Under the pieces are notes generated by a model. The model had not been told where the DNA came from, ran no database searches, and saw only the letters and a program-made list of their open reading frames with translations. DNA of 64,000 nucleotides from Desulfosudaceae bacterium (GTDB lineage Bacteria; Desulfobacterota; Desulfobacteria; Desulfobacterales; Desulfosudaceae). Both the position numbers and the translations under genes were made by a program. Positions 3,001 through 17,591 of the stretch are shown piece by piece (within the stretch, counting starts at the first letter, position 1; each line of letters begins with the position of its first letter). The stretch spans positions 1,440,001 through 1,504,000 of the forward strand of contig CAXXDV010000003.1 in the NCBI GenBank assembly GCA_963674745.2, in the 5' to 3' direction.

Positions 3001-3022
3001 TAAATTGAGTTGTATTTTTTAA
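2..3022 (+). CDS. TPR-repeat protein fused to a C-terminal TonB-dependent-receptor-like outer-membrane beta-barrel (5'-partial)
   Basis: Frame is open from base 2 (EVLASELEKID...), so the start lies upstream of the window. About 450 aa of TPR-like helices are followed by amphipathic beta-strands (FFLHDTWH, SPRIGLIY, DVNNLFD) and a terminal Phe. Confidence 0.75.
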   Translation, partial: EVLASELEKIDRLLADQPGSLTLLIKKGRILYDLDVVDEAQTIFKQMLKKKAMSFQALEGLGWCSLRQDMPEQAIAYFKRMSTPTELSIIGLSLAYQRLSKTEQAQKILFQALDRKPIRSHALILARAAETMLMSGNPGKALDLIHESLAEQENALAYRLLSTIMIVQNKNDAALSAAQKAVALSPCSSAAHVDLAWVYQALFQLDRALAETSRALALDPDNIRALLTYSRLQFGFGYLEIAEDHVDRVLARSSQEPEACTLKGFLCLARRQTDKAMNWFNKARDLDSGQSRPHLGLGIALIRQGETPEGIQEMLIAALLSPNESLNFSYLGKALYQNGDFKGAEKTLIRAKQLDPNDPSPYLYAGIMKTDLNQVADGIRELEKAVALNDNRAVYRSRFLLDQDRAVKNVDLARTYASLGLSAMARNRALLSLKDDPNNSAGHLFMARSLIFENDRGEAGASELLKFYLLQPVNKNSFNTFNDYTSFFEKPDLNIGLDIFGGNHGTGDYMADFTGSRHNIAGRQLFQYYTTDGYRDDNFNRYALSHTVLKFQLGLNHDFLLLAETSDGKNGDRFDDAMADAVMDPDYTGENTISRMTLGYHARLSPGSDVMVVAQKHSKKSDTFDGPENENWSLDFLGDEFWLVEPAGTDGDWEDHVWQLSAVHQLSLGSHKIAYGAEYFNSRSKYSSLSIKNYSLLYYPELSYIAVEEPYRGRIKPEYYAFFLHDTWHILPQLMLDAGLFYEDAKTGLVPPILSSNTFDSDHLSPRIGLIYSPARRHTFRLGYYQYLQNISIALERLQPTDVAGFTIGHNALPGSMHKEVAVAWDVQISDRSHFSTRVFNRKRQEKMDTLFTDEFVTKTRRFYGVEAEWNRMFLSFFGLNLSCAYIQNREEAFDIGYLVNPKRRRDDYLVRLAFYFHHPTGWKASLELSHINQELKDADEYEVEEPSSFELVNLSVSKELLNKRMSLGMDVNNLFDKEFNLITDYLQTDSPIPAREILFKLSCIF

Positions 3023-3030
3023 CCGGCCGC

Positions 3031-5526
3031 TTAATATTCCCCGGCTGAAATCTTTTTGACAAAAGCTTCGGTTATCTCGTCACGGGCTTTACGATGGGCA
3101 ACATTCTTATGGCTGCCGGTAATCACGATCATCAAAGCCGGCGCCAGGATAAAATCAGCCAGCAAAGCGAACATAATGGCCATGGCGGTAAAAATACCAA
3201 ACCGGATGGTGTGGGACAGGTGAGCGAAAACAGTTACAATAAACCCGAGGCTGAGCACGATGGAGGTTACCATCATGGCCCGCCCCACGCCGGACAGGGT
3301 GATATTCACGGCCGCGTAGGCATTGCCGGTTTTCAGGTAATATTTTCGGAAATTGTAAATAAAATGCACGGTATCATCCACCACCAGCCCCATGGCGATA
3401 CTGGCGATCATCAGCGAAGTCATATCCAGGGGCACATCGATCGCACCCATAATACCCAGTGTCATCAGAATGGGCAGCACATTGGGAATCATGGAAAACA
3501 GGCCGGTTTTCACTTCGCCCACCAGCAGGATCATCATTACGGCAATGATAACAAACGCCAGAAGATAACTCCTGGTCATGCTGCCCAGGGCCGCGGATAT
3601 GGTCCGGGCCAGCAAGGCCGACATACCGGTGATATGGATTTCGGCCCGGTCTTTGAACATAATACCCAGATATTGATTCAGGTAGCCGACAAACTCATTC
3701 ACATAAACCGAATCCACCCAAAGGATTTTAACGGTTACCCGTGTTTTGGAAAACTGCGAATCCACGATGGTTTCCAGGTCGTCCGACCCTGAATTTTCAA
3801 ACAGCAAAAACTCCTGAGCAATGGTGTTGTAATCCTGTGGAACACGGTAAAAATCCGTCTTGTTTTCGTTTAAGGCCTGATGGGTTTCCTTGAGGATATC
3901 GTTAATGCTGCCGACATGACCGATGGTGATATGGGGGAAGTCCAAGCGTTCCAGGTCCACTGTCAATCGTTCGATGCGGTTTAAAATATCCGGGTCATAA
4001 ATGCCGTTTTCCCGGCCGGTATCGATGATAATTTCGATGTTCAAGGCACCGTTCAAGCGGTCGTTTACCACTTCGATATCATGACGTATCCTCATGGATT
4101 TGGGGAAATAACTGAGCACGTAATCGGAATATCGAAGGTCAAAAAGAAAATAAAGACTGATGGCAAAGGCCACAAGACTGACGATGATAATGCGAATGGG
4201 ATAACGGGTGGAAAATCGCGCCGCCCAGTTCAGAAAAATATCCATCACCGTCCGATGGACTTCCGGTTTTACGGTTTTCGGTACCCTGGGCTTGACCGGT
4301 ACCAGGGCGACCATGGCGGGCAGCATGATGACCGTGTACAGCAACGCCATCACCACTCCGGCAGCCGCGAAAAAGCCCAGCTCTCCCATGGCGGTCAGTT
4401 CGGCTGTGGCAAAGGAAAGCAGGGCCGCCGCCGTGGTCAGGGTCGTCAGCACCACGGCCAGGCCGGAATGGCCCATGGCATAGGCAATGGCGTCTTTTTT
4501 ATTGTGTCCCCGGTCTATCTGCTTATAAAAAATAGACAGAATATGAACGGAATCGGCCACGCCAACGGCCAGCAGAAAGGCCGGCAGCACCGTGGTGGTC
4601 ATTTTTACGGAAACACCGGTCCAGCCCATGAGCGACAGGGCTGAAAAAGAGGCCGCATTGACGATTACCTGTGGCAGCAGCACACCGGAAATCCGGCGGA
4701 ACATCAGCGCCAGAAAAATCATGATCACAGCAAAACTGAGTCCAAAGCACAGCTTCAGATCTTTCATGGTATACTGGTTGAAAACCGACATGATGACCGG
4801 CGCGCCGGTAAACGCCAGAGAAAAATCAGGCGCGTCATATTCATCCATTACCGCTTCGATGGTCTTGACCAGCTCTTCGTTCTGCTCTTCGGATAAATAC
4901 CGCTTTTTTTCAGCGGTTTGGGGTTCCGCAGAAAAGTCGGTATCATCAAAACCGTCCAGCACATCAAGGGTGTCCATAGTTTTGGTATGATAAACTTCAG
5001 GCTTTATCACCACGGCGGTGGTATGACCATCAGAGGAGATGATCTGGTTGCGGTAAAACGGGTTTTCAAGGACCAGTTTTTTCAACGCCGCAAAATCGAC
5101 CTGCCGCTCTTCCGGCCAGCCTTCCATAAGGTCCTCGACAATCAGGCGGTCTTCACTGCCAAGGGTGTGGCGGACATTAATCAGGCTGGTAATTTCATCA
5201 ATATAGGGAACTTTTTCTTCCAGTTCATTGTGAAACGCTTTTAATTTACGAAAAAACGTTTCGGAAAACAGATTATCGCTGGAAATAGCGATGACAACCA
5301 TACGGTCCTGGCCGAACTGTTCGCGGAACTGGTTATAAACCTGCTTATACGGGTCGCTGTCCCGCAACAACTCTTCGGTATTGGTATCTACAACCAGATT
5401 CGGAAGGCCGTAAAAAATCAAACCGATCAGAGAGAACAACAGCACCAGGGTTTTAATCCGGTGGGTATAAAGTGTCCTGGCCAGATTTTCGAAAAACAAC
5501 TCAATGCGATCTTTGATAGGTGACAT
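3031..5526 (-). CDS. MMPL/RND-superfamily transporter permease
   Basis: 831 aa with two TM-rich halves and large periplasmic loops; GVADSVH and GLVVDDTVH acidic TM motifs. Confidence 0.88.
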   Translation of the reverse strand: MSPIKDRIELFFENLARTLYTHRIKTLVLLFSLIGLIFYGLPNLVVDTNTEELLRDSDPYKQVYNQFREQFGQDRMVVIAISSDNLFSETFFRKLKAFHNELEEKVPYIDEITSLINVRHTLGSEDRLIVEDLMEGWPEERQVDFAALKKLVLENPFYRNQIISSDGHTTAVVIKPEVYHTKTMDTLDVLDGFDDTDFSAEPQTAEKKRYLSEEQNEELVKTIEAVMDEYDAPDFSLAFTGAPVIMSVFNQYTMKDLKLCFGLSFAVIMIFLALMFRRISGVLLPQVIVNAASFSALSLMGWTGVSVKMTTTVLPAFLLAVGVADSVHILSIFYKQIDRGHNKKDAIAYAMGHSGLAVVLTTLTTAAALLSFATAELTAMGELGFFAAAGVVMALLYTVIMLPAMVALVPVKPRVPKTVKPEVHRTVMDIFLNWAARFSTRYPIRIIIVSLVAFAISLYFLFDLRYSDYVLSYFPKSMRIRHDIEVVNDRLNGALNIEIIIDTGRENGIYDPDILNRIERLTVDLERLDFPHITIGHVGSINDILKETHQALNENKTDFYRVPQDYNTIAQEFLLFENSGSDDLETIVDSQFSKTRVTVKILWVDSVYVNEFVGYLNQYLGIMFKDRAEIHITGMSALLARTISAALGSMTRSYLLAFVIIAVMMILLVGEVKTGLFSMIPNVLPILMTLGIMGAIDVPLDMTSLMIASIAMGLVVDDTVHFIYNFRKYYLKTGNAYAAVNITLSGVGRAMMVTSIVLSLGFIVTVFAHLSHTIRFGIFTAMAIMFALLADFILAPALMIVITGSHKNVAHRKARDEITEAFVKKISAGEY

Positions 5527-5610
5527 CTTTGCCCGTAACCCTCTTTATTTAGTACGTCTTCTACATCCGTAAAAATGTAGATATAGACGATGGGGTCGAA
5601 AAAGGCAAGG

Positions 5611-5660
5611 GAGATTATGTGGTTATGTGTTTAAGTGATTATGTGTTTATGTGGTTAAGT
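5611..5660. repeat. Octamer tandem array (GTGRTTAW-like x6)
   Basis: GAGATTAT GTGGTTAT GTGTTTAA GTGATTAT GTGTTTAT GTGGTTAA; same unit as at 11249-11424. Confidence 0.85.
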
Positions 5661-5711
5661 TGCAGCAGGCTTGGAGTTGGGGTGATGGGCCGCTGCCTAA
5701 ATAGCACCCAT

Positions 5712-5775
5712 GTGAGGGGCGACCGGCGGGTCGCCCCCTAAAACCCCAAACTTCGAACCCTGAACTTCAAACCTC
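5712..5775. repeat. Degenerate REP-like palindrome followed by a heptamer array
   Basis: ggggcgacc-ggcg-ggtcgcccc, then AAACCCC AAACTTC GAACCCT GAACTTC AAACCTC. Confidence 0.65.
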
Positions 5776-5780
5776 TATTC

Positions 5781-5816
5781 TTGCTATTTTGACATATTTT
5801 CTGATATAATTATAAA
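5781..5816 (+). promoter_or_regulatory. Putative sigma70 promoter of the GRE operon
   Basis: TTGCTA-18nt-TATAAT, or TTGACA-16nt-TATAAA, upstream of a GGAGG RBS. Confidence 0.55.
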
Positions 5817-5846
5817 AATTTACGTTTTCCAATCTCCGGAGGCGCT

Positions 5847-6662
5847 ATGACAACAGAAGGGATCCTGCTGGAAAGAAAAGGCCATATTGCGGTGGTCACG
5901 GTCAACCGGCCGTCACGGCTCAACGCCTTTAACCGCTTAATGCTTGAGGAACTAGAGCGGGTGACCGCTGAACTGAAAAAGCGACTGCCCCGGGTCATTA
6001 TCATTACCGGGGCCGGTGACAAGGCCTTCAGTGCCGGATTTGATGTCAACCCCGACAACCCGCTGTTAATGGAGCTGTACGATGCCATGGGCAAAAGCGA
6101 CCGGCCGGCAATCGTCAGCGGTATGAAGTTTGTGATTGATACGGTTGGTAACTTCGTCTCCCTGCCGGTTCCTATTATCGCCGCCATCAACGGCCTGGCT
6201 TATGGCGGCGGTGCCGAACTGTCCATACGGTGTGACATGCGCGTGATGAACAAAAGCGCCGTAATCTGTATGTCCGAAGTAAAGCTGGGGCTGATGCCCG
6301 ACTGGGGTGGCGGTGCCACCCTGGCCCACCTGATCGGCCCGGCCAGGGCCGCCGACCTGAGTCTTTCGGCCCGGAAAGTTTCGGCCGATGAAGCCCTGTT
6401 GCTCGGTCTGGCCAACCGGGTCTGCGCCGATGACCGCTGCCTGGACGAAGCCTTTGCCCTGGCGGAAACGATTTCCAAAAACGGCCCCAGGGCCGTTCGT
6501 CACGCCCTGTCTGTCATCCGGCAGAGCCGGAACCTGTCTTTAGACAAAACCCTGGAACTGGAGCTGGAAGAAGCAGCAACCCTGGTGGAATCCGGGGAGA
6601 GTGTGCACGGCGTAACAGCCTTTCTGGAAAAAAGGGAAGCGGATTTCCCTGATATTGAGTAA
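5847..6662 (+). CDS. Enoyl-CoA hydratase/isomerase (crotonase family)
   Basis: AFSAGFD and GGGAE oxyanion motifs; both catalytic-type Glu present (GAELS, MSEVKLG); MPDWGG. Confidence 0.92.
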   Translation: MTTEGILLERKGHIAVVTVNRPSRLNAFNRLMLEELERVTAELKKRLPRVIIITGAGDKAFSAGFDVNPDNPLLMELYDAMGKSDRPAIVSGMKFVIDTVGNFVSLPVPIIAAINGLAYGGGAELSIRCDMRVMNKSAVICMSEVKLGLMPDWGGGATLAHLIGPARAADLSLSARKVSADEALLLGLANRVCADDRCLDEAFALAETISKNGPRAVRHALSVIRQSRNLSLDKTLELELEEAATLVESGESVHGVTAFLEKREADFPDIE

Positions 6663-6738
6663 GACCGTCCTGTCCACATGTCATTTTCAGCAAGGACCAT
6701 AAGATTTAGTTCGGGTGACAACCTGAGGAGGTAATAAC

Positions 6739-9255
6739 ATGGGAGCAACCGCCGCAAAACAGTTTGAAAAACCTTTAAAACAGCCTGCCCGGTTGTCCGA
6801 CAGGATCACCTGGCTGAGGGATTACTATTTCAAAGGTACGGACAGGGCCTGGAACAACGAGTTCACGGCCTGGTCGACCGGCACCCCCTGGGATAACCAG
6901 TTCAATGAAATGACGTTCTATATTGTTCCCGAGACCTATCCCCTGCTCCGCACCATGGGCGGGTCTTTCCGCCAGGCTGCGCGTACGGTTCCCCTGCCGG
7001 AAAATTTCTGGTCCTGGAGCCTGCCGGAAAGAAGGGCCTGGTTTGTACGGGAAGTGATGGTCAACCAGCTTCCCAAAGAGATCCTTCCCGGTGACCTGAT
7101 CGCCGGTGGACGGTTCAACCTTCAGACATCCATGTGCCTGACAAAAGAAGAGCAGGCCGAATACAACCGGCTGATCAACGGTAAAAACGGCGCCCGGGCC
7201 GCCATGAAGTGGTTTCATGATCATGGCTACGGCAATGCCGGGGCCACCTCGGGCCACCTGGTCCCCGATCATGAACGTATTCTGAAAGTCGGCTGGCAGG
7301 GTGTGGTCGGTGAACTGGGCGCGATATATACCGGCCTGCCCGAAAACGAAAAAAACGGCCCCAGGGGCGAGCAGTTAAGCGCCATGATCACGGCCGCCAA
7401 AATGCCAAAGGAACTGGCCGTCCGATACGCCCGCCTGTGCCGGACCCTGGCGGACGGGGAAAAAGATCCCGACCGGCAACAGGAACTGGAGCAGATGTCC
7501 AGAAACCTGGATAATGTCTCCTGGTACCCCCCGGCCACCTTCTGGGAAGCGGTCCAGGCCCTGTGGCTGAACCACATGCTGGTCATGAGTGATGAAAATT
7601 ATCCAGGACCGGGTGTCTCCTTCGGCCGCATCGACCAGTTCCTTCTGCCCTACTGGCAGAGTTCTCTTGAAAACGGCATGTCCCGGGAATTCGGTAAAGA
7701 AATATTAAAATGCTTCTGGATTCACTGCAACACCGCCTATGATGCCATGATCCGCAACGGGTACCAGGGCATCACCTCGGGTTTCGGGCAGTTGATCACC
7801 CTTTCCGGTCTGGGCAAAGACGGCCAGGACATGACCAACGATCTGACCTTTGCCATTCTGGAGGTCATCGATGAAATGTCCCCCATCCTGGAACCCAAAC
7901 CCAACATCCGGCTTCACCGCAATTCTCCTGAAGAATTGCTGAACAAGGTGGTGGACATGATCGGTTCCAGCCAGGGCGCCCCGTTCCTGCTCAATTTTGA
8001 TGAGCGTTCCATGGCCGGCATGATGCGTGAGGCCCGCCTGGCCGGCCTGGAGCACCTGATCAATGAAAACAACGTGCATGATTACGCGCCTGTGGGCTGC
8101 CTGGAAAACACCATGGTCGGGAATGACCGTTCCGGAACAGTCGACAACAACCTCAACCTGCTCAAGGCCGTGGAGCTGGCCCTGACCGGCGGTAAAGACA
8201 TGCTGGAATTTACCGACCCCATGACCGGCAAAACCGAAAAAATCGCCCAGGACGGCCCCTATACCGGGGATGCCACCAGGTTTGAGACCTGGCAGGATTT
8301 CTGGAATGCCTACCGGGAACAGACCGCCTATATTATTCAACGTTGTGTGGACCTGTATGAGACCACTGAATCCATCCGGGCGCGTTTTTTCCCGACGCCC
8401 TATCTTTCCTGTCTGGTCAGGGGGTGCGCCGAAAAGGGGCTGGATATCACCCGCGGCGGTGCCGAAATCAACTTCACCACCATCGAGGCGGTCACTTTTG
8501 CCACCACGGTGGATTCGCTGCTGGCTGTCAGGTACCTGGTGTTTGAGGCGGAAAAATGCACCATGGCCGAGCTGATCCGGGCCCTTCAGGCCAACTGGAA
8601 AGGCCACGAAGTCCTGCAGGCACTGGCCAAAAACAGGGCGCCCAAATACGGCCGGGATGACGAGCAGGCCGATGCCATGGCGGAAAAGGTCATGAACCTG
8701 TGGTGTGACGAAACCTGGAAGCATAAAACCCGCGCCACCGGCCGTCAGTTCCGGCCGGGCATGCTCAGCTGGAATTACTGGGCCGGAGACGGCTTTATCA
8801 TGGCGGCCAGTGCCGACGGACGCGAAAAAGGGCAATTTCTGTCCAACGCCATCTGTCCGGTCAACGGTGCCGACATCCACGGCCCCACATCCAACACCAA
8901 CTCGGTGGGCAAGGCGTTGGGCGGCATGAGTGCCGTTGAAGACGGCGACCTGGACGGATATGTCAACCTGCTGCCCAACGGTGCCAGCCACACCATCTCT
9001 TTTCACCCGGCCATCGTCGCCAGCCCCGGTCACCGGGATAAATTCAAGGCCTTTCTACGGGCTTACGCGCAAAACGGCGGGACCGCCCTGCAGATCAACA
9101 TGGTCGATCCGGAAATGCTCCGTGACGCCCAGAAGCATCCTGAAAATTACAAGCACCTCCTGGTCCGGGTCACCGGTTACAACGCTTATTTTACGGCCGT
9201 GGGCCGGGAACTGCAGAATGAAATCATCGAACGGTTAAGCCATGAACGTTTTTGA
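6739..9255 (+). CDS. Glycyl radical enzyme, non-PFL, substrate unknown
   Basis: 838 aa; C-terminal LLVRVTGY (Gly813); single-Cys finger loop VGCLEN (Cys454/Glu456); SFGRIDQ motif. Confidence 0.92.
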   Translation: MGATAAKQFEKPLKQPARLSDRITWLRDYYFKGTDRAWNNEFTAWSTGTPWDNQFNEMTFYIVPETYPLLRTMGGSFRQAARTVPLPENFWSWSLPERRAWFVREVMVNQLPKEILPGDLIAGGRFNLQTSMCLTKEEQAEYNRLINGKNGARAAMKWFHDHGYGNAGATSGHLVPDHERILKVGWQGVVGELGAIYTGLPENEKNGPRGEQLSAMITAAKMPKELAVRYARLCRTLADGEKDPDRQQELEQMSRNLDNVSWYPPATFWEAVQALWLNHMLVMSDENYPGPGVSFGRIDQFLLPYWQSSLENGMSREFGKEILKCFWIHCNTAYDAMIRNGYQGITSGFGQLITLSGLGKDGQDMTNDLTFAILEVIDEMSPILEPKPNIRLHRNSPEELLNKVVDMIGSSQGAPFLLNFDERSMAGMMREARLAGLEHLINENNVHDYAPVGCLENTMVGNDRSGTVDNNLNLLKAVELALTGGKDMLEFTDPMTGKTEKIAQDGPYTGDATRFETWQDFWNAYREQTAYIIQRCVDLYETTESIRARFFPTPYLSCLVRGCAEKGLDITRGGAEINFTTIEAVTFATTVDSLLAVRYLVFEAEKCTMAELIRALQANWKGHEVLQALAKNRAPKYGRDDEQADAMAEKVMNLWCDETWKHKTRATGRQFRPGMLSWNYWAGDGFIMAASADGREKGQFLSNAICPVNGADIHGPTSNTNSVGKALGGMSAVEDGDLDGYVNLLPNGASHTISFHPAIVASPGHRDKFKAFLRAYAQNGGTALQINMVDPEMLRDAQKHPENYKHLLVRVTGYNAYFTAVGRELQNEIIERLSHERF

Positions 9256-10204
9256 GATTCAGCGGTTTTCCACCGAAGACGGGCCCGGCATCCGGACGAC
9301 TGTTTTCTTAAAAGGCTGCCCCCTGCACTGCGAGTGGTGCCATAACCCGGAAAGCATTTCACCCCATCCGGAAGTCGTCTGGTTTGCGACCCGCTGCATC
9401 GGCTGCCGCACCTGCATTGACGTTTGTCCGGAAAAAGCGCTTTTGCTGACCGAACAGGGTATGATCATCGACCGTGACAAATGCAGCCGTTGCGGTAAAT
9501 GCGCCGAAGAATGCCCTTCCACAGCGCTGGAACAGATCGGCACCCGCCGGGATATCAACGCCCTGGTCGAGGAAGTATTAAAAGACAAAACCTATTATGA
9601 AACCTCTGACGGCGGCGTGACCGTATCCGGCGGTGAACCCCTGATGCAGGCCCCTGCCCTGGCCCCCTTTCTGGCAAGACTTAGAGAGCATGGGCTTCAT
9701 ACCGCCCTGGACACCTGCGGGTTGTATCCCCGGGAAAAGCTGGACAGCGTTCTGCCTTATGTCGCCCTGGTTCTGTTTGACATCAAGCTATTCGATGCTG
9801 AGTCACACAGAAAATTCACCGGCAGCGACAATCGCCTCATCCTGGAAAATTTTGCCTATATTGCAGACTATACAGCCGACCACCTCTATCCGACCGGCAT
9901 CTGGGTCAGGACACCGATCATACCCGGCGCCACGGATACTGACAATAATATTACCGCCATCGGACGGCATATCGCCGCCGTCGGTGGTAAAGCGGTTGTC
10001 CGCTGGGAGCTGTGCGCCTTCAACAACCTTTGCGCGGACAAATACCAGCGCCTGGGGCTGGACTGGGCCTATGAAGGACGTGGATGTCTGCCGGTTGAAG
10101 GGATGGAACGCCTGGCCGAAACCGCCCGCAAATCCGGTGTCAATCCGGAAATTGTTGTCTGGAGTGGGGCGACGGATAAGGGAAAGGACATTAATGCAGG
10201 TTAA
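9242..10204 (+). CDS. Glycyl-radical activating enzyme (radical SAM with 2x[4Fe-4S] ferredoxin insert)
   Basis: DGPGIRTTVFLKGCPLHCEWCHNPES; CIGCRTCIDVC and CSRCGKCAEEC; GVTVSGGEP; overlaps the GRE stop codon. Confidence 0.95.
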   Translation: MNVFEIQRFSTEDGPGIRTTVFLKGCPLHCEWCHNPESISPHPEVVWFATRCIGCRTCIDVCPEKALLLTEQGMIIDRDKCSRCGKCAEECPSTALEQIGTRRDINALVEEVLKDKTYYETSDGGVTVSGGEPLMQAPALAPFLARLREHGLHTALDTCGLYPREKLDSVLPYVALVLFDIKLFDAESHRKFTGSDNRLILENFAYIADYTADHLYPTGIWVRTPIIPGATDTDNNITAIGRHIAAVGGKAVVRWELCAFNNLCADKYQRLGLDWAYEGRGCLPVEGMERLAETARKSGVNPEIVVWSGATDKGKDINAG

Positions 10205-10251
10205 CATATTGATTTATTTTCTGATTAGCTATAACGCTTAATGGCCATATT

Positions 10252-10344
10252 AGGGTTCAGGGATTCGAGGGGTCAAGGAGTCAAGTGAAGGAGCAGTGCC
10301 TTGGCCCCTTGACCCCTCGAATCCTTGAACCCTTGAACCCTTTT
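10252..10344. repeat. Long hairpin built from octamer units (GGGTTCAG/GGATTCGA/GGGGTCAA), possible terminator
   Basis: Left arm agggttcagggattcgaggggtcaaggagtcaag pairs with cttggccccttgacccctcgaatccttgaaccct; followed by tttt. Confidence 0.8.
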
Positions 10345-10401
10345 CTGACATTAAATAGGGGCTAAAACAATTAAATAATGAAGTACTAAGGAGAATTACT
10401 A

Positions 10402-11244
10402 ATGGCAAATGCCTTTACGCAAGACGATATAGACGCTTTCAAGCCGGCTGAAAAAATCGGCCTGGTGGCCACTATCAATCCTGAAGGGCTGCCCCATATT
10501 ACGCTGATCACGTCCATTATGGCCTCCGGTCCCGGTCAGGTAACGCTGGGCGAATTTTCCAAAGGTAAAAGCAAAGAATACCTGCAGCTCAACCCCGACA
10601 TGGCCTTTCTGGTTCTGACCATGGACAGGAAAATATGGCGCGGCCGGGCGACCTGGACCCATTTGAAGAAAGAAGGTCCGGAATACGAGGTTTACAACGA
10701 CATCCCCATGTTCCGTTATAACGCCTATTTCGGCATCAATACCGTTCACTACCTGGATTTAAAAGAAACAAGCGGTCGCAAAAGCCTTCCCCTGGCCAGG
10801 ATTATTCTATCGACGTTGTTGACCAGGATGATCAAAGGGAAGTTCAAAACCGGAAAAACCGCTCAAGTGTTAAAGCCTTTTGCCGAACGCGGCATTTTCA
10901 ATAACCTGAGCGCCCTCAAGTTCATCTCCTGGATCGGAGAGGACGGCTTGCCCAGGCTGATTCCGGTTGTTCAATGTCAGGCGGCTGATTCCGGCCGACT
11001 GGTCTTTTTCTGTTTTCCTTTTGGCAAGGAACTGGCCGCCATCCCGGACGGTACACCGGTGGCTGTATTCGCCCTGACCATGGTTATGGAGAACGTGCTG
11101 ATCCGGGGAAAATTTATCCGAAAGAAAAAGATTTTGGGACTGCCCATGGCTGCCGTTGATATCGACTGGGTCTATAACTCCATGCCCCCCTGCCACGGCC
11201 AGATTTATCCGGAAATACCGCTCGAACCGGTAACGGCTTTTTAA
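10402..11244 (+). CDS. Tandem pyridoxamine-5'-phosphate-oxidase-like (split-barrel) protein
   Basis: Two similar halves: KIGLVATINPEGLPHIT and LKFISWIGEDGLPRLIP; AAGGAG RBS. Confidence 0.7.
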   Translation: MANAFTQDDIDAFKPAEKIGLVATINPEGLPHITLITSIMASGPGQVTLGEFSKGKSKEYLQLNPDMAFLVLTMDRKIWRGRATWTHLKKEGPEYEVYNDIPMFRYNAYFGINTVHYLDLKETSGRKSLPLARIILSTLLTRMIKGKFKTGKTAQVLKPFAERGIFNNLSALKFISWIGEDGLPRLIPVVQCQAADSGRLVFFCFPFGKELAAIPDGTPVAVFALTMVMENVLIRGKFIRKKKILGLPMAAVDIDWVYNSMPPCHGQIYPEIPLEPVTAF

Positions 11245-11248
11245 AAAT

Positions 11249-11757
11249 GTGGTTAAGTGGTTAAGTGATTATGTGGTTATGTGTTCTGGAGATGGGAGAT
11301 TGAGGCTTTAAAGGTTTTGGGGTTTTAAGGTTTTAGAGTTTTAAGTGGTTATGTGATTAAGTGATTATGTGGTTATGTGTTCTGGGGATGGGAAGTTGAA
11401 GCTTTAAAGGTTTTGGGGTTTTAAAGTGTCAGGGTTTTAGGTTCGAGGTTTATGGCTTGTGCTCATGTAGGGGCACCCCCCTGTGGGTGCCCATTTACCG
11501 GGCGGCCACAGGGGGCCGCCCCTACAATTCCGAAAAATTTAGCGGCCAGTTTTCATAACATAAACAACATTTTTGGGGTTTAAATGGTTAGGTTTTTGTA
11601 AATACAACTTGCATTTCCTCGTTGCACTCGGACAAGCCCGCACCATCAGCTAACCATCTAAAACATAAAACTTTAAAACCTAAAACCTTTGATGCCTATA
11701 CATCTCAATTTGCTATTCACATAATCACTTAATCACCTAAACACATAATCACTTAAA
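11249..11757. repeat. Composite palindromic intergenic element: 2x96-bp octamer higher-order repeat, REP doublet, inverted octamer array
   Basis: Units at 11249-11344 and 11345-~11424 are near-identical; a reverse-complement diverged copy lies at ~11650-11757. Confidence 0.85.
11467..11525. repeat. GTAG-family REP doublet (REPIN-like)
   Basis: GTAGgggcacccccctgtgggtgccc...gggcggccacagggggccgcccCTAC; related copies at 48975 and 52009. Confidence 0.85.
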
Positions 11758-13426
11758 CCTTAAACTTCCCCATAAGCTGATACAACTGCTCCGCCAGGCC
11801 GGCCAGGTTTTCAGCGCTCTTTTTTAACTGGTCGCTGTTTCCCGCCACATCAATCGCACTCTGATTGACATTGAGAATGTCTTCCGCCACCTGGCTGGTG
11901 GACTGGGAACTCTGGGAAACGCTTTCAGTCACATCCCCGATGGCCTTGGAGATTTCAGATACATTGCTTGCGATTTCTCTGGTAGTAGCCGATTGTTCCT
12001 CTACCGAAGATGCAATAATCATGACCGTTTCGTTTACCTTATCAATAATATCGGCAATCCCCTGGATATCTTCGACCGTTCCAAAAGTTGTTTCCTGGAT
12101 ACTGTTAATTTTCCCCTTGATATCAAGCGTGGCCTCAGCAGTCTGCTTGGCCAGTACCTTGATCTCCTCTGCAACTACCGCAAAACCCTTTCCGGCATCC
12201 CCTGCCCTGGCCGCCTCGATGGTCGCATTCAATGCCAGCAGGTTGGTCTGTTCGGAAATATCATTGATGGTCTCGGTTACCTTTCCGATTTCGTCGGCTG
12301 CGGCACCCAGCGCGCCTACCCGGTTCGAGGCATGATCGGATTTTTCAACGGCTTCTCTGGTTATTTTCGAAGCATTATGTGAGTTCTGCGCGATTTCATT
12401 AATGGTGGAACTCATCTGTTCCGCCGAACTGGCCACTAAATCCGTGTTGGCCGTGGCTTCTTCCATGGCCACCGCAATATTACGGATACTGGCATCCATC
12501 TGTTCCATGGCGGAAGAAACGGAGTTGGTCTTGTCAACCATTTGCCCGGAAGACCGGTTCATCACACCGGAAAGATCGGTCAGGCTGTTAGAAGAACCTT
12601 TTAACGTCCCGGCATCGGATATAATCGACCGGGTCATGTTCTGCATATTTTCCATGAACATGTTAAACCACCTGGAAAGTTCACCTACTTCATCCTGGTA
12701 TTTAATGTCCAGCCGTCGCGTCAGGTCGCCTTCGCCCTTGGCAATGTTTTTAACCATATCCACGGCGTTTTGTATCGGCAGAATAATCGAGCGCCGCAAA
12801 ATAATGGTGACCAGAATTGTCGAGATCGCCACAATAAGGCAAAAAACCCATAAATTCCAATAGCGTTGGGCCTTGCTGAAAGAAACGACATCAGACAGCT
12901 CCGCCGTCAGGCGTTTTTTGTAATCAGATTTCAAGTTTTCAAGATCGTCTTGTATGGCCTTTATTTCTTTTGCCATACCAGAGACCTTTTTCCGCAATTT
13001 AGCATCTTCAAACATATTTGAATTTGAAACCAGGGAAAGATAAGTCGCTCTGGCGGCTTGAGAAAATTGTGCCGTTCTGGTGATCAATTGATCGATCTGG
13101 CTGGAATCCTTTTCCTGCTGCTTTGCCATCCGGCTGATATCCTGAAGCGTTTCTTGAACCATCGCAGCTTTTGAATCAGCTTTTTCAATCAGGCTCTGAT
13201 CACCGGTCATAAAAACATCTTTATAAAGTTCAACCTGATTATTGAAGGCTTCCAGCGCGGCCTGACTCTGGTGGGAAGCAGGGGAAAAAAACAGATGAAC
13301 GGATTGAATCCGTTCTTCCGTGTCAATTCCTTTTAAAAACCCTAACAGCATGGAGAAAAAATATCCTGCCAGCAGGATACCGAGGCTAAGATAGATTTTT
13401 TTAGAAATACCCAAAGATCGCAACAT
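11753..13426 (-). CDS. Methyl-accepting chemotaxis protein (TM-periplasmic-TM-HAMP-MA)
   Basis: [29 protein letters not shown] signature; [12 protein letters not shown]...DEVGEL. Confidence 0.96.
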
Positions 13427-13598
13427 AAAGACGACTCCTTAAAACGAATTTCAAAACATCGAATATCGACATTTTTTTTAAACTACATAATTTATATAGA
13501 ATACGGTATTTAAACACGCATATCCAGAAATATCCGGTATCAGATGGATATTTTTTATTTTCAGTTGATCGGGATGACGTTACTGCCCTTTGTATTGA

Positions 13599-13627
13599 TT
13601 GACTGGAATGTCGATTAGATGTATAAT
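13599..13627 (+). promoter_or_regulatory. Sigma70 promoter of the fdh operon
   Basis: TTGACT-17nt-TATAAT. Confidence 0.7.
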
Positions 13628-13767
13628 ATTCTTCATAAAGTAAGTACGCCTCTCTTTTTTAGTGTGGTTCTTTTTTTCGACTACGGTTAATCCGGATATT
13701 TCATGCCCCACCTTTTTCCGGCTTTTGACAAAACATAAATAATTTCAAGTAATAGTCAGGTAAATTG

Positions 13768-16700
13768 ATGAAAATTTCCCGAAGGTCCTTTCTAAAAATC
13801 ACCGGCCTCGGTGCTTTTGGTATCGGTGCGCCTGAAAAAAAAGCAGGTGCCAAAAGCCAAACCAAACCATCAAAACCGGGATCTGATTACACCACTTCCA
13901 TCTGCCCTTTCTGCGCCGTGGGCTGCGGGCTCCTGGTCTTTCGGGAAAAAGGCCGGATCACCGACATCTGCGGCGACCCGGAGCACCCCATCAACCAGGG
14001 CGCCCTGTGCGCCAAAGGGCAGGCCCTGATCCAGATGGTCAACAACCCCCGGCGCCTGGATAAGGTCCTGTACCGCCCGCCGGGCGGAACCGCTTTTGAA
14101 GAAAAACCCTGGTCCTGGGCCATCGAACAGATCGCCAAAAGAATAAAACAGACCCGGGATGACGACTTTATCCACAAGGAAGGCGAAAATCGCGTCAATC
14201 GAACCGACTCCATTGCCTGTCTCGGCGGCGCGGCCCTGGATAATGAAGAGTGCTATCTTTACGTCAAACTGGCCCGGGCCCTCGGCATCACCCGCATCGA
14301 ACACCAGGCCCGTATCTGACACAGCACCACGGTCGCCAGTCTGGCGGCCAGTTTCGGCCGGGGCGCCATGACCAACCACTGGATAGACATGGCCAATGCC
14401 GATGCCGTTATGGTCATGGGCTCCAATGTCGTGGAAAACCATCCGGTGGCTGCCCGTTGGCTGGAAGCAGCCAGAAGTAAAGGCGCCGTTATTCTTTCGG
14501 TTGATCCCCGTTTTACCCGGACCTCAGCTTTTGCCGACCATTACTGTAAATTAAGAAGCGGCACCGACATCGCCTTTGTCGGTGGTATGATAAACTATGC
14601 TATAAGAAATCAACGCATTAACAGGCAATACCTCATTGACAACACGAATGCTTCATTTATTGTGGGCAAGGATTTTGGCTTTCATGACGGCCTGTTTTCC
14701 GGGTTTGATCCCGCAACTTTCAGGTATGACAAATCCAAATGGGCCTTTGAAATGGACGCCTCCGGCCTGCCCCGAAAAGACGAAACCCTCGCACACGAAC
14801 GTTGCGTGTTTCAACTTTTGAAAAAACATTTCAGTCGCTATGACGCTCAGACCGTGTGTGATATCACCGGCGCGCCAAAAGAACAGTACGAAAAAATCTG
14901 TGACCTTTTCACCCGCTCCTGGCAAAATGACAAGGCCGGCACCTGGCTTTACGCCATGGGCGCCACCCAGAGCAGTCACGGCGCGCAGAACATCCGTTCC
15001 TACTGCATTTTGCAGCTTCTGTTAGGTAACATCGGCATCGCCGGCGGCGGCATCAATGCCCTGCGTGGAGAATCAAATGTTCAGGGCTCCACCGACATGG
15101 CCCTTTTATACCACCTGCTGCCCGGATATTTAAAATCCCCGGCTTCAAAAGACATCACCCTGGCAGCTTACTTAAACGCTTACACGCCCGCCTCCCCTGA
15201 CCCGAAATCCGCCAATTGGTGGCAGCACACGCCCAAATATACGGTTTCGCTTCTGAAAGCCTGGTACGGGGCGCATGCCACAGCCCAAAACGATTTCTGC
15301 TATGATTATCTGCCCAAAAGAAGCGGCAATTACTCTTACATGTCCCTGTTCAAGGATATAGAACAAAGAATCGTCAAGGGCCTGATACTGTTTGGCCAGA
15401 ACCCGGTGGTCAGCGGCCCCAATTCCGGAAAGGAAAGTAAAACCCTGGCCAAACTGGACTGGATAGTGGCCGTTGATCTTTTTGAAACCGAGACCGCCTG
15501 CTTCTGGCAGGAAGACATGGCCGGGGCAAAAAACATCAACACCGAAGTGTTTCTGCTGCCGGCCGCCTTCTTCTGCGAAAAAGAAGGCAGCATCACCAAC
15601 AGCGGCCGCTGGGCCCAGTGGCGTTATGAGGCCGCCCCGCCCCCGGGGCAGGCCAGAGCCGACCTGTGGATTATAGATGCCCTGTACAAAGCCATTAAAA
15701 AAAAATACGGCCACAACGGCGTTTGTCCCGATCCGATATTGAGTTTAAAATGGGACTATGACGCGCCTGAGGGGCACGTCAGTCCCGACCCTCACCTGGT
15801 GGCGAAAGAGGTCAACGGTTATTTCACAGAAGATGCCGTGGTCAAAGGCCGGACTTTTAACCGGGGCGACCAGGTGCCCTCATTCGCCTTTCTGAAAGAT
15901 GACGGTGCCACTGCCTGCGGCAACTGGCTCTACTCGGGCTCCTATCCGGGCAAACAAATCGCCGACAACAAAATGGCCAGACGAAAGAAAACCGAGGCTG
16001 TCAACCACATCGGTCTGTTCCCCGAGTGGTCCTGGTGCTGGCCGGTCAATCGCAGGATCCTGTACAACCGGGCTTCGGTAGACAGAAACGGTCAACCCCG
16101 TAACCCGGATAAATGGGTCATCAAATGGGATGAAGAAAAAAAATGGCTGGGTGACGTACCCGATGGTGGTTGGGCCCCGGGGGATAAACTGCCCTTTATC
16201 ATGAAGCCTGCCGGATACGCCGAAGTTTTTGCTCCTTCTTTAAATGACGGGCCTTTTCCGGAACATTACGAACCATTTGAAAGTCCCGTGGCCAATTGTA
16301 TTTCCACAACCCGGAATAATCCGGCCGTCAACCCCCTGGCGTTTACGCTTGAAACAGCCCCTGACCGCAACGCCGGCAGCTTTGATCAATTTCCGGTTGT
16401 GGCCACGACCTATCGCATGAGCGAACACTGGCAGTCCGGGGCCATCACCCGCAACACCCCCTGGCTGACCGAGCTGGTGCCCGATTCATTTGCTGAAATC
16501 AGCCGCGAACTGGCCCGGGAGCTGTCCGTCAAAACCGGTGATATGGTCATGGTCGAATCCGCCCGGGGCGCTGTCAAATTAAAAGCCCTGGTGACCGGCC
16601 GATTTACCCCGTTCACGCTGCAGGAAAAAACCGTTCACCAGATCGGACTGTTATGGCACTTCGGGTTCAAAGGATTGGCCACGGGTGCGACCGCCAACAT

Positions 16701-16779
16701 GCTGACACCGGATATCGGCGACCCGAATACCATGATACCTGAATATAAGGCATTTTTATGTCGCGTAACCAAAGCATAA
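13768..16779 (+). CDS. fdnG: Formate dehydrogenase alpha subunit, selenocysteine-containing, Tat-exported (Mo/W-bisPGD)
   Basis: SRRSFLK Tat motif; CPFCAVGC...C cluster motif; in-frame TGA at 14317-14319 in HQARI-U-HSTTVASL joins ORFs 13765..14319 and 14368..16779 (same frame); C-terminal IPEYKAFL. Confidence 0.95.
14331..14349 (+). promoter_or_regulatory. Bacterial SECIS hairpin
   Basis: GGUCGCC-AGUCU-GGCGGCC stem-loop beginning after an 11-nt spacer following the UGA. Confidence 0.8.
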
Positions 16780-16790
16780 GGAGATACATT

Positions 16791-17591
16791 ATGAAAGGTC
16801 TACTGATCGATACAACAAAATGCATCTCCTGCCGTGCCTGCCAGGTCGCCTGCAAGCGGCAGCATCACCTGGAAGCCGAAAAGACCAGCTTCTTTCTGAC
16901 AACCGGATATCAGAACCCGGTTCATCGCTCAAGCAAGACCTGGAACCTGATCACTTTCAACGAATCCACCGGTCCTGAAGGTTTCAGGTGGGAGTTCGGC
17001 CGCAGGCAGTGCTTTCATTGCGTGGAGCCCGCCTGCGTCACTGCCTGCCCGGTTGGCGCGTTGTATAAAAACAACTCCGGCGCGGTCTGTTATGACGAAT
17101 CCCGCTGCCTGGGATGCCGGTACTGCCAGATTGCCTGCCCCTTTAACGCCCCGCGTTTTGAGTGGGACAAGGCCATGCCGGAAATCAAAAAATGCGATCT
17201 GTGTGATGACCTGATCCAGTTTGGCGAACAGCCGGCCTGCAGCGCCACCTGCCCCACCGGGGCCATCATGTTCGGTGACCGGCAGGCGCTGCTGCGCGAG
17301 GCCAAAAACCGGATTGCCGAAGCCCCGGATCGTTATGTCAACCACGTCTATGGCGAAAAGGAGGTGGGCGGCACCTGCGTCCTGCATCTGGCCGCTGTTC
17401 CCTTTGAAAAGATGGGTTATGTCAGCGGCCTTCCGGAAAAGCCCCTGGCTCGTCAGATCGAAAAACCCATGCAGGCCATTCCCTTTGCCATGACCTCGAT
17501 GACCGCCATCCTGGGCGGTCTTTTCTGGATTATTAAGAGACGCGATGAAGTAAGTGAAGAAGAAAAAAATATGGACTCAGATAATGAATAA
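16791..17591 (+). CDS. FDH iron-sulfur beta subunit (HybA/FdnH-like, 4x[4Fe-4S], C-terminal TM)
   Basis: CISCRACQVAC, CFHCVEPACVTACP, CLGCRYCQIACP, KCDLC...PACSATCP; AAGGAG RBS before ATG 16791. Confidence 0.92.
   Translation: MKGLLIDTTKCISCRACQVACKRQHHLEAEKTSFFLTTGYQNPVHRSSKTWNLITFNESTGPEGFRWEFGRRQCFHCVEPACVTACPVGALYKNNSGAVCYDESRCLGCRYCQIACPFNAPRFEWDKAMPEIKKCDLCDDLIQFGEQPACSATCPTGAIMFGDRQALLREAKNRIAEAPDRYVNHVYGEKEVGGTCVLHLAAVPFEKMGYVSGLPEKPLARQIEKPMQAIPFAMTSMTAILGGLFWIIKRRDEVSEEEKNMDSDNE

Follow-up and report, generated by a model that had tools for sequence, protein, structure and literature searches.

Organisation of the locus

In the window analysed, a stretch of 64,000 nucleotides from a Desulfosudaceae bacterium, the locus consists of four ORFs on the + strand, arranged as the first-pass annotation had described. 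They encode an enoyl-CoA hydratase/isomerase (crotonase) family protein (271 aa, 5847..6662; PF00378 (ECH_1), 161.5 bits), a glycyl radical enzyme (GRE; 838 aa, 6739..9255), a GRE-activating radical SAM enzyme (320 aa, 9242..10204) and a tandem split-β-barrel protein of PNPOx/FMN-binding-like, HupZ-like type (280 aa, 10402..11244), the companion of this GRE clade and called the partner below. Upstream of the crotonase gene there is a sigma-70-like promoter match (TTGCTA-18-TATAAT with TG; 5781..5810, + strand), a possible operon promoter. It scores 10/12 and is a consensus match only, as the region has 4 such sites versus 4.7 in shuffles. A terminator-like hairpin with a T-run, likewise a consensus match only, lies where the fourth gene ends (11216..11242, + strand). 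The spacer between the activase and partner genes contains a long near-perfect hairpin with arms of ~33 bp (10252..10335, no strand assigned), which has a folding energy of −74 kcal/mol and a z of −6.1. It came to light via miRNA-precursor-like Rfam matches below the gathering score and is made of a short genome-dispersed, REP-like motif (86 blastn HSPs in the genome).

The activase gene starts inside the end of the GRE gene, sharing 14 nt with it. The protein matches Radical_SAM and, at residues 45–96, Fer4, and its translation contains CPLHCEWC (CX3CX2C) and two CxxCxxCxxxCP motifs, so that the overlapping activase with a (two-cluster) ferredoxin insert proposed earlier is borne out. It scores 308.7 bits against TIGR02494 (cut-off 174.35) and attains no NCBIfam equivalog cut-off, the BssD-type activase model giving 196.3 against 496.45.

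A GRE family with a conserved partner

The GRE matches the PFL-like (406.7 bits) and Gly_radical (73.7 bits) domains. Its translation contains VGCLEN (Cys454, Glu456) and LLVRVTGY (Gly813), and residues 38–55 read WNNEFTAWSTGTPWDNQF; the residues of all three motifs are invariant in 21 family members. The single Cys-x-Glu instead of the Cys-Cys of PFL, the RVTGY radical loop and the Trp-rich N-terminus, all pointed out previously, are thus read directly in the translation. The GRE had also been assigned to a class that was not recognised, and this view held. In the profile search it stayed, by wide margins, under the cut-off of every NCBIfam GRE equivalog (score/cut-off: HypD (NF043068) 360.6/1100, HpfG 380.2/1000, HpsG 339.3/1000, CutC 301.6/1050, PFL 75.9/994, HPAD large subunit 189.4/1150), and even the PFL2-3 subfamily model was missed (396.4/678.2). 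No solved GRE, and none of the nine further GREs in the same genome, comes closer than ~28–31% identity; the best solved relative is HypD (~28%, 279.8 bits).

This GRE is an oxygen-sensitive enzyme. Hundreds of sediment anaerobes encode members of its family, which is very large and tightly conserved (70–83% identity in 78 loci). Among 3802 matches, the best 120 are 72–93% identical and almost all 835–843 aa long. A relative is encoded in 701 of the 732 genome stretches that carry one of two family peptide motifs, with records from Desulfobacterales, Desulfosudaceae, Syntrophaceae/Smithella and Spirochaetota. Where there was enough DNA to judge, the partner gene was present in every locus (67/67) and the activase gene in 66/67; the neighbourhood conservation that had been suggested as a check on the PNPOx-like gene is therefore found. 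The conserved unit is GRE, activase and split-barrel protein. In three loci (L078, L098 and L099) the GRE adjoins the partner with no activase between them. A GntR/FCD regulator gene precedes the cassette in 40/58 loci, and in most cases the cassette is isolated, with neither pathway nor transporter genes close by. Distant partner homologues mark a sister subfamily: each of the 12 loci fetched for them holds a GRE that is 44–50% identical, and their partner (23–28% identical) is detected by tblastn in nine loci and by profile only in the other three. We found no paper describing a GRE–activase–split-barrel cassette.

Alignments indicate that the active site retains the His/Cys/Glu/Asp set of diol dehydratases. 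His173 and Cys454/Glu456 correspond to His164 and Cys433/Glu435 of glycerol dehydratase. Asp469 is opposite the dehydratase Asp in the alignment to the GRM3 propanediol dehydratase; in the phmmer alignment to glycerol dehydratase it is Val468, not Asp469, that faces Asp447, so the equivalence of this residue is alignment-dependent. His173, YPGPG (288–292), VGCLEN and GTVD are identical across both subfamilies in 15 of 16 rows (L104 differs at 289–291), and this signature is absent from the nine GRE paralogues of the genome. It is important to note that the CxE loop is kept in GRE isomerases too and is therefore no proof of elimination.

The partner has no Pfam match at E ≤ 0.001, PNPOx included, and its L080 homologue is also under the Pfam PNPOx threshold. 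At the level of fold, the earlier description as tandem PNPOx-like nevertheless holds. In the structural model (pLDDT 91) the N half matches HupZ/FMN-binding split barrels (Z 14.9, rmsd 2.9, 119 aligned residues). The C half, when modelled separately (pLDDT 85.6), gives a match to this fold as well (Z 14.0, rmsd 2.0, 108 aligned), and a profile alignment relates the two halves to one another (hhalign E 8.7e-5). Conservation is highest in a flexible RYNxY loop (105–109, pLDDT below 50), and Arg105 is the sole basic residue among the positions common to both subfamilies. The partner is single-copy in the genome, which has 5 activase-like matches and 10 GREs. It is evolving far more rapidly than the GRE, a pattern consistent with a structural subunit and not with a conserved downstream enzyme.

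Proposed reaction and alternative explanations

Aldehyde-handling genes recur around the cassette. AOR genes occur in eight loci and additionally in L013 and L063; with L059, which has a Mo-hydroxylase-type aldehyde oxidoreductase, this makes 11/78 loci. Fe-ADH genes (lactaldehyde-reductase-like, 330 bits) occur in seven. On the GRE tree, the loci with such neighbours are spread over at least three separate clades, most of them belonging to one. A sulfatase gene also recurs in a minority of loci. Based on the diol-dehydratase-type residue set together with the aldehyde oxidoreductases, Fe-ADH and sulfatase recurring in a minority of loci, we consider it probable that the very widespread PFL2-type GRE clade to which this three-gene module belongs is a new clade of aldehyde-forming 1,2-eliminases with a dedicated partner. 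According to this proposal, the activase, as a radical SAM enzyme that has three [4Fe-4S] sites, would place the radical on Gly813. Cys454 would then become a thiyl radical that takes hydrogen from a hydroxyl-bearing carbon, Glu456 would deprotonate the hydroxyl of that carbon, and His173 and Asp469 may assist departure of the adjacent leaving group, as in the B12-independent glycerol and propanediol dehydratases. The product would be an aldehyde or ketone, passed to ordinary aldehyde oxidoreductases or alcohol dehydrogenases. The substrate probably differs from all known GRE substrates, the His-Ser pocket loop of the diol dehydratases being Pro291-Gly292 in the GRE. The partner would be dedicated to the enzyme rather than to the activase; most likely it binds a flavin or tetrapyrrole-type ligand, and its role would be that of an accessory subunit or of a redox/cofactor helper.

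The role of the partner could be conceived in other ways. If it were a downstream flavin-dependent enzyme (e.g. ene-, imine- or aldehyde-reducing) converting the GRE product, as P5C reductase does after HypD, its strict synteny with the GRE would be accounted for. Both halves have the fold of FMN/F420-dependent reductases, including an ene-reductase (8d4w) and F420 reductases, and old-yellow-enzyme-type reductases are encoded near a few loci (L051, L102, L105). For an enzyme acting on the same product, however, better conservation would be expected than the 23–28% identity between two subfamilies that have one and the same GRE active-site signature. Moreover, the most conserved element of the partner is a flexible loop and no recognisable cofactor motif, neither an NAD(P)H-binding domain nor a gene for an electron donor goes with it, and the Pfam PNPOx match is missing, which makes such an enzyme unlikely. 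We find it quite improbable that the partner is a dedicated electron donor, standing in for flavodoxin in the reduction of the activase cluster and thus serving activation instead of catalysis. Its gene lies directly 3′ of the activase gene in nearly all loci, and passages of a 2026 review state that GRE activases require a one-electron donor, flavodoxin in E. coli (PMC13450708). A PNPOx-like protein without an assigned role, LssP, is also encoded in a limonenylsuccinate synthase operon (PMC12583861). On the other hand, the GRE–partner pair without an adjacent activase in three loci speaks against a role in activation, the other activases of the genome have no such partner, and the characterised GRE systems covered by the review are described with general donors (PMC13450708). 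As to the GRE itself, source annotations call members of its family 'formate C-acetyltransferase', 'pyruvate formate lyase family protein' or 'trans-4-hydroxy-L-proline dehydratase', and its His/Cys/Glu/Asp set is that of diol dehydratases. A mislabelled pyruvate formate-lyase, hydroxyproline dehydratase or glycerol/propanediol dehydratase is nonetheless very hard to believe in: every curated cut-off is missed, the Cys-Cys pair is absent, Pro291 is found at the position of HypD Asp278 and glycerol dehydratase His281 and Gly292 at that of Ser282, and no GRE dehydratase is known to have the third gene. Neither P5C reductase nor a BSS/HPAD small subunit was found among the 14 ORFs scanned in 1–20.7 kb of the window, in agreement with the earlier statement.

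The crotonase gene raises the question of whether the GRE acts on, or feeds, an acyl-CoA/enoyl-CoA (β-oxidation-like) pathway for a lipid-derived substrate, by the route aldehyde, acid, CoA ester and then crotonase with acyl-CoA dehydrogenase. The gene lies 76 nt upstream of the GRE gene, co-oriented and with no convincing terminator between them; its product reaches no NCBIfam equivalog cut-off, and the best crotonase paralogue in the genome is just 35% identical. Members of the same orthologue group flank the cassette in L009 (78% identical) and, divergently oriented, in L059 (57%), L052 has an ECH gene and a long acyl-CoA dehydrogenase gene upstream of the regulator, L054 has an ECH gene, and L102 of the sister subfamily has ECH and dienoyl-CoA-reductase-like genes downstream. 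SCP2-like lipid-carrier genes occur in six loci. Three of the 10 GREs in the genome have a crotonase gene within ~2 kb upstream, the two others besides this one being orphan GREs and one of the three a contiguous ECH–ACAD–GRE string; the number expected for 28 crotonase genes in 5.5 Mb is, roughly estimated, ~0.06. The partner is carried by 9/15 genomes with a crotonase orthologue versus 37/301 overall, but most of this overlap comes from three families of related genomes and may reflect lineage alone. Conservation of the crotonase gene next to GRE homologues, which had been named as a check, failed: it is beside the cassette in only 4/78 loci, and elsewhere adjacent and co-oriented solely in L009, a close relative. 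In the 8 sampled genomes beyond G000 with both genes, these are on different contigs or ~550 kb apart. Furthermore, these organisms carry many crotonase genes, the Fe-ADHs encoded nearby are similar to short-chain lactaldehyde reductases, and no CoA ligase or transferase is conserved near the cassette. The acyl-CoA pathway suggested at first is thus not supported as stated, with a weak residue in L059, L052 and the two other GREs, and we regard functional coupling as doubtful. In this genome the crotonase gene takes the place of the usual GntR/FCD regulator gene; it is a local addition outside the conserved system, probably co-transcribed with the cassette.

Comparison with known systems

Glycerol dehydratase DhaB1/DhaB2 of Clostridium butyricum (1r8w) and the GRM3 1,2-propanediol dehydratase (9rco) likewise combine a PFL2-type GRE with a ferredoxin-insert activase. 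They share with our GRE the His/Cys/Glu residues (and the Asp in the 9rco alignment), and some cassette neighbourhoods contain aldehyde-handling genes (Fe-ADH like FucO/DhaT; AOR). Their scores against the GRE are, however, just 268 and 263.5 bits, the loop GHSISP of the diol dehydratases is GPGVSF in the GRE, and CxE is followed by Asn, not Pro. Unlike the diol dehydratases, the GRE has an obligate third gene for the split-barrel protein, in most loci a GntR/FCD regulator gene as well, and no microcompartment; the BMC shell domain PF00936 has 0 matches in the whole genome (completeness 99.96%), which extends the earlier remark on shell proteins. HypD (6vxc) has the CxE loop and a dedicated second enzyme next in its pathway, but its Asp278 aligns with Pro291 and the P5C reductase neighbour is missing here. 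The second-best solved relative, Archaeoglobus fulgidus PFL2 (2f3o; 276.6 bits), is distant and its function is debated; passages of the 2026 review list this orphan of a sulfate reducer as unassigned (PMC13450708).

A constant, fast-evolving extra protein besides the activase is also known from benzylsuccinate synthase (beta/gamma), HPAD (gamma) and MASS (delta). Those subunits are described in the same review as small Fe-S or rubredoxin-like proteins (PMC13450708), whereas the partner, at 280 aa, is a tandem split barrel and has no cysteine motifs. The scores against the BssD-type activase (196.3/496.45) and HPAD large subunit (189.4/1150) models also suggest that the GRE is eliminase-like and not an X-succinate synthase.

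For the partner, the fold common to both halves is that of the HupZ/COG3576/Desulfovibrio FMN-binding protein family, and profile similarity to HupZ is marginal (E 0.015). HupZ, the nearest structural neighbour, binds heme rather than flavin, so that a flavin as ligand of the partner is putative. Members of this family are single-barrel homodimers, whereas the partner is a fused pseudo-dimer with its own RYNxY loop and, unlike them, was seen in the material examined solely beside this GRE clade.

Gene content and conserved neighbourhood

The first-pass annotation described four co-oriented genes, and open reading frames are found at exactly its coordinates, all on the + strand. The crotonase-family gene (5847-6662) carries the ECH_1 domain (PF00378, 161.5 bits) and reaches no NCBIfam equivalog cut-off. 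It is followed by the gene for an 838-aa glycyl radical enzyme (GRE; 6739-9255; PF02901 406.7 bits, PF01228 73.7 bits) and by the activase gene (9242-10204), which encodes Radical_SAM and 4Fe-4S ferredoxin motifs and overlaps the GRE end by 14 nt. The fourth protein (10402-11244, 280 aa) has no Pfam or NCBIfam match. Ahead of the four genes is a promoter-like site (5781-5810) and at their end a terminator-like one (11216-11242), both consensus matches only. As the annotation had also noted, microcompartment shells are missing: there are no shell genes in the whole genome, which is 99.96% complete.

The 197-nt spacer between activase and fourth gene contains, at 10252-10335, a hairpin whose pairing over about 33 bp is almost perfect (-74 kcal/mol, z -6.1). 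Both arms consist of a short motif with 86 blastn HSPs genome-wide, and because of this recurrence the hairpin resembles a REP-like dispersed palindrome. It may account for the spacer being longer than in relatives. A riboswitch search of 5300-11900 returned sub-threshold miRNA-like matches only, which correspond to this hairpin. Further out, a 983-aa protein with TPR repeats fused to a TonB-dependent-receptor-like beta-barrel is encoded at 71-3022 (+), and an HAE3/MMPL-type RND transporter at 3031-5526 (-), divergent from the crotonase and GRE genes; both are absent from the 78 related loci. On the other side, 13765-18849 carries a selenocysteine formate dehydrogenase-N-type alpha subunit with an in-frame TGA at 14317-14319 (within ...ARIUHS...), and 3' of it a HybA/HmcB-like Fe-S subunit (16758-17591) and an NrfD/HybB-like membrane subunit (17554-18849).

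Gene conservation was followed by tblastn of the window proteins against the 78 family loci. The split-barrel gene, i.e. the fourth gene, lies 3' of the GRE in all 67 loci with at least 2.1 kb downstream (47-67% identity), and the activase is 3' of the GRE in 66 of 67. In one family locus, L078, the split-barrel gene comes directly after the GRE gene with no activase between. Clustering of neighbouring ORFs shows that a regulator of the GntR family with an FCD/FadR_C domain usually lies upstream; it occurs in 40 of the 58 loci whose upstream sequence reaches 900 nt or more. These tallies exclude ORFs shorter than 90 aa and those overlapped by more than 40% by a longer ORF; the Pfam scan covered 57 same-strand neighbours of the 306 selected. 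The effector of the regulator cannot be read from sequence, as NanR, FadR, GlcC, PdhR and LldR score alike and all below cut-off; it is probably what the GRE consumes or forms. No orthologue of the regulator is present in the genome of the window, where the best match is 32%.

In the window and in the related locus L009 the place of the regulator is taken by the crotonase. The expectation of conserved neighbours holds for the split-barrel gene (67/67) and fails for the crotonase, which occurs in 4 of 78 loci and is non-adjacent in sampled genomes. It is adjoining, co-oriented and 78% identical in L009, divergent and 57% identical in L059, and 3 kb upstream with about 30% identity in L052 and L054. 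We conclude that the window crotonase is a local addition and not a defining trait of the family.

It is thus unlikely that the GRE is coupled to acyl-CoA metabolism through the crotonase. Besides its rarity at the loci, crotonase orthologues (48-59%) occur in 14 of 300 other sampled genomes, of which 8 (9 with the genome of the window) also have the split-barrel gene, and in those 8 the two genes never lie together: they are on different contigs or some 550 kb apart. Genomes with both are concentrated in three families. Moreover, the window's own genome has about 28 crotonase genes. On the other hand, the crotonases of the window, L009 and L059 form one orthologue group (best in-genome paralogue 35%), and a long acyl-CoA dehydrogenase gene is also near in L052. 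Two other orphan GREs of the same genome have a crotonase close upstream, one of them (L110) as a contiguous string of ECH, long acyl-CoA dehydrogenase and GRE. Crotonases close upstream of three GREs in ten are, on a rough estimate, far more than chance would give for 28 genes in 5.5 Mb, and acyl-CoA coupling therefore stays a live, though less likely, alternative.

There are ten GRE genes in this genome, and the nine others are at most 31% identical to the GRE of the window; examples are G000:C3:666700-669663, G000:C1:1040558-1043062 and G000:C1:1680962-1684291. None of the ten attains any NCBIfam GRE cut-off. Four of the GRE ORFs are 982-1109 aa long, and in one (L095) an activase-like stretch is N-terminal to the GRE in a single reading frame. 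Among their contexts, for which 65 of 106 ORFs were scanned, there are GntR/FCD regulators upstream of two GREs (L108, L116), an aldehyde dehydrogenase gene 3' of another (L113), and a PrpD-like gene and an AAA_5 ATPase near a further one (L111).

Class, active site and probable product of the enzyme

The enzyme is a member of the GRE superfamily, with a PFL-like barrel and a C-terminal glycine radical domain. The motifs listed in the first-pass annotation are all present in the translation, namely VGCLEN (Cys454, Glu456), RVTGY (Gly813) and a Trp-rich stretch at 38-55, and these residues, including Gly813 within RVTGY, are invariant in a 21-member family alignment. The activase, the cognate radical SAM enzyme, has the CX3CX2C motif (CPLHCEWC) and two CxxCxxCxxxCP motifs; its gene overlaps the GRE stop, and it scores 308.7 bits with TIGR02494 (cut-off 174.35). 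A Trp-rich N-terminus forming an extra domain was considered and rejected: residues 98-124 align to the standard N-terminal GRE helices of 9rco, a structure identified in the consulted part of PMC12756279 as GRM3 propanediol dehydratase. The lone catalytic Cys is followed by Leu and Glu (Cys454-Leu-Glu456, invariant), which is the Cys-x-Glu loop set out for GRE 1,2-eliminases in passages of a superfamily review (PMC13450708).

Every NCBIfam GRE model is missed widely, which bears out the view that this is an unrecognised class. The GRE scores 380.2 with HpfG (NF048009, cut-off 1000), 360.6 with HypD (NF043068, 1100), 339.3 with HpsG (NF048011, 1000), 301.6 with CutC (TIGR04394, 1050), 218.4 with indoleacetate decarboxylase (1100) and 189.4 with HPAD (1150). 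Pyruvate formate-lyase was also rejected, as the Cys is single and not a Cys-Cys pair and the PFL model (TIGR01255) gives 75.9 against a cut-off of 994. Among solved structures HypD scores best (280 bits), ahead of A. fulgidus PFL2 (277), glycerol dehydratase (268) and 9rco (263.5).

For the active site we compared H173, Y288-P-G-P-G292, S294, V452-G-C-L-E-N457, G466-T-V-D469, C563 and R-V/I-T-G-Y. They are the same as in the window in 7/7 rows of the window's own family and in 7/8 GREs of the sister subfamily, whose member L104 departs from the signature at 289-291. The nine paralogues of the genome lack YPGPG, VGCLEN and GTVD, and most read GCVEP. In the alignment with glycerol dehydratase His173 corresponds to His164, and Cys454/Glu456 to Cys433/Glu435. 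His164 is the proposed general acid of that enzyme in the relevant passages of the review (PMC13450708). Asp469 aligns to a conserved Asp of 9rco and is one residue off (Asp447) in the alignment with glycerol dehydratase (1r8w).

The substrate loop is different: the GHSISP of both dehydratases is GPGVSF in our enzyme (Pro291-Gly292), and Pro291 occupies the same position as HypD Asp278 after a 20-residue tag offset, the loop residues being counted by eye. His281 and Ser282 of glycerol dehydratase, both in this substrate loop, stand opposite Pro291 and Gly292. This loop difference, together with a PFL2-3 subfamily score (TIGR01774) of 396.4 against a cut-off of 678.2, places the enzyme outside the diol-dehydratase class. 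The aligned His173, Cys454 and Glu456, and tentatively Asp469, suggest the catalytic machinery of a 1,2-eliminase that cleaves C-O bonds. The pocket for the substrate appears, from sequence comparison, to be unlike every known one.

Some hints about the product come from the neighbours. Aldehyde:ferredoxin oxidoreductase (AOR) genes are found 3' of the split-barrel gene in 8 loci and just upstream in L013 and L063, and L059 has a Mo-hydroxylase-type aldehyde oxidoreductase downstream, so that aldehyde oxidoreductase genes are near the cassette in 11 of 78 loci. A lactaldehyde-reductase-like Fe-ADH occurs in 7 loci and an SCP2-like protein in 6. Six loci have a Tat-signal sulfatase (arylsulfatase-/choline-sulfatase-like, scoring under the cut-offs) and six a polytopic membrane protein of 184 aa; together the two cover 7 loci, in three distinct arrangements from Desulfobacterales, Syntrophaceae and Leptospiraceae. 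In a GRE tree of 71 rows (quick method, SH-aLRT only) the AOR/ADH set falls in one 11-row Desulfobacterales clade, L084 and a Syntrophaceae clade, and the sulfatase set in three clades. The majority of cassettes, though, have no genes for a pathway or a transporter around them.

Although limited to a minority of loci and to genomes that are related, these associations suggest that the product is an aldehyde, and the substrate is possibly freed from a sulfate ester. In three Spirochaetota loci (L074, L077, L080; ~10551-11106) a 176-aa polytopic membrane protein is encoded between GRE and activase; either this protein or the sulfatase-associated 184-aa one may be a substrate channel. We consider it the most likely reading that the family is a new clade of GRE 1,2-eliminases that form aldehydes and have a dedicated split-barrel partner. 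The idea of a PEG or ether lyase found no support in print and was set aside as speculation.

The split-barrel partner

The AlphaFold2 model of the partner, built from 46 homologues, has pLDDT 91 and pTM 0.90. Its N-terminal half (4-131) matches HupZ, FMN-binding proteins of Syntrophomonas and Desulfovibrio and F420 reductases (VIA Z 14.9, rmsd 2.9 Å, 119 aligned; Foldseek E 1.1e-7). A separate model of the C-terminal half (pLDDT 85.6) gives the same set of matches (Z 14.0, rmsd 2.0 Å, 108 aligned). Aligned to one another, the halves give an hhalign E of 8.7e-5 and a probability of 60%. Both halves are thus predicted to be split beta-barrels, and the description of the protein as tandem PNPOx-like holds at the level of fold. 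By sequence, the likeness to split barrels of solved structure is marginal, with E 0.015 for HupZ. The PF01243 gathering score is not reached: the partner of the window has no match at E<=0.001 and the homologue in L080 scores 18.6 vs 28.1 bits. Many members of the partner family have a precomputed PF01243 match.

A partner profile run on 301 sampled genomes of the phylum finds close orthologues in 20 and weaker full-length matches in 17 more. Twelve of the weaker-match places were fetched, and all of them have a GRE alongside that is 44-50% identical to that of the window. In this sister subfamily tblastn detects the partner in 9 of 12 places, with 23-28% identity, and in the remaining loci (L102, L105, L107) it is detected by the profile only. 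The activase lies between GRE and partner in 10 of 12 places, the exceptions being L098 and L099. Few partner positions are common to both subfamilies; the block R105-Y106-N107-x-Y109 stands out and is also the sole low-confidence loop of the model (105-109, pLDDT <50). Neighbours in the sister subfamily were scanned for 54 of 92 ORFs. At its locus L104 a TetR regulator is directly beside the GRE-activase-partner unit, and a second, unrelated PFL-like GRE (12247-14691, -; 814 aa, with 29% identity across its tblastn match) adjoins the cassette.

The split-barrel gene is a true partner of the GRE and a third component without precedent for a GRE clade. The GRE pocket is frozen, the partner drifts in sequence, and it tracks the GRE even where no activase is interposed. 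Such behaviour is more in keeping with an accessory subunit or a helper of the enzyme than with a downstream enzyme or a reductant of the activase. We consider it a long shot that the partner is an obligate cofactor-bearing subunit that gives the clade a capability of no known GRE. Such a subunit may supply or accept an electron or proton relay in turnover, leading to C-O cleavage, perhaps of an ether- or ester-type bond, and the substrate may be a lipid-derived or desulfated hydroxy compound. If this is true, it would be a new two-component GRE class common to Desulfobacterota and Spirochaetota.

Distribution and relation to known systems

A search of 5.8 billion proteins, in which 8000 candidates were scored, gave 3802 matches to the GRE. 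Identity is 72-93% throughout the best 120 of the 3802, and nearly all of these are 835-843 aa long. Family members carry the source labels 'pyruvate formate lyase family protein', 'formate C-acetyltransferase' and 'trans-4-hydroxy-L-proline dehydratase', and look-ups of family cluster members returned no experimental labels. In species-representative genomes, 732 stretches contain the family peptide MLSWNYW or HDHGYGN[AST], and 701 of these stretches encode a relative. According to the record titles, the 78 loci kept belong to Desulfobacterales, Desulfosudaceae, Desulfococcus, Desulfosarcina, Syntrophaceae/Smithella and Spirochaetota/Leptospiraceae. The cassette is also present in a record of Desulfosudis oleivorans (L060). 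With about 700 species-level genomes bearing the motifs and thousands of 90% metagenome clusters, the clade is among the largest.

The earlier interpretation stands for the GRE class and for the split-barrel gene as its partner, and falls for the crotonase. GREs carry out difficult anaerobic chemistry, including formation of TMA, H2S, p-cresol and toluene and activation of hydrocarbons. The clade described here is extremely conserved, yet its members mostly carry the wrong label of PFL or HypD; no other clade seen in this analysis has a conserved third protein of the split-barrel type. If its substrate were known, the carbon cycling of anoxic sediments would gain a widespread reaction, and metabolic reconstructions in which the clade passes for pyruvate formate-lyase could be corrected. 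For annotation, VGCLEN, YPGPG and GTVD in the GRE and the RYNxY loop in its partner make a simple diagnostic. Should the partner act in catalysis or radical maintenance, the superfamily would gain a new principle.

In the sections consulted, the superfamily review of 2026 has six eliminases that cleave C-O bonds, one that cleaves C-N and the C-S-cleaving sulfolyases, spans isomerases, decarboxylases, X-succinate synthases and formate lyases as well, and states that whole GRE clades remain unannotated (PMC13450708). The words 'PNPOx', 'FMN' and 'ether' are absent from its outline, sections 5.6 and 7 and term passages. We found no publication on a GRE-activase-split-barrel cassette in a search that covered few subscription journals. 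In the genome paper of Pelobacter carbinolicus an unassigned GRE was merely guessed to be an ethanediol dehydratase. The only echo of a PNPOx-like GRE partner that we found in print is LssP, which, in the part of the report consulted, is an expressed PNPOx-like protein without an assigned role, encoded by a Syntrophobacteraceae MAG in its operon for limonenylsuccinate synthase (PMC12583861). PNPOx-like proteins may recur with GREs of several classes.
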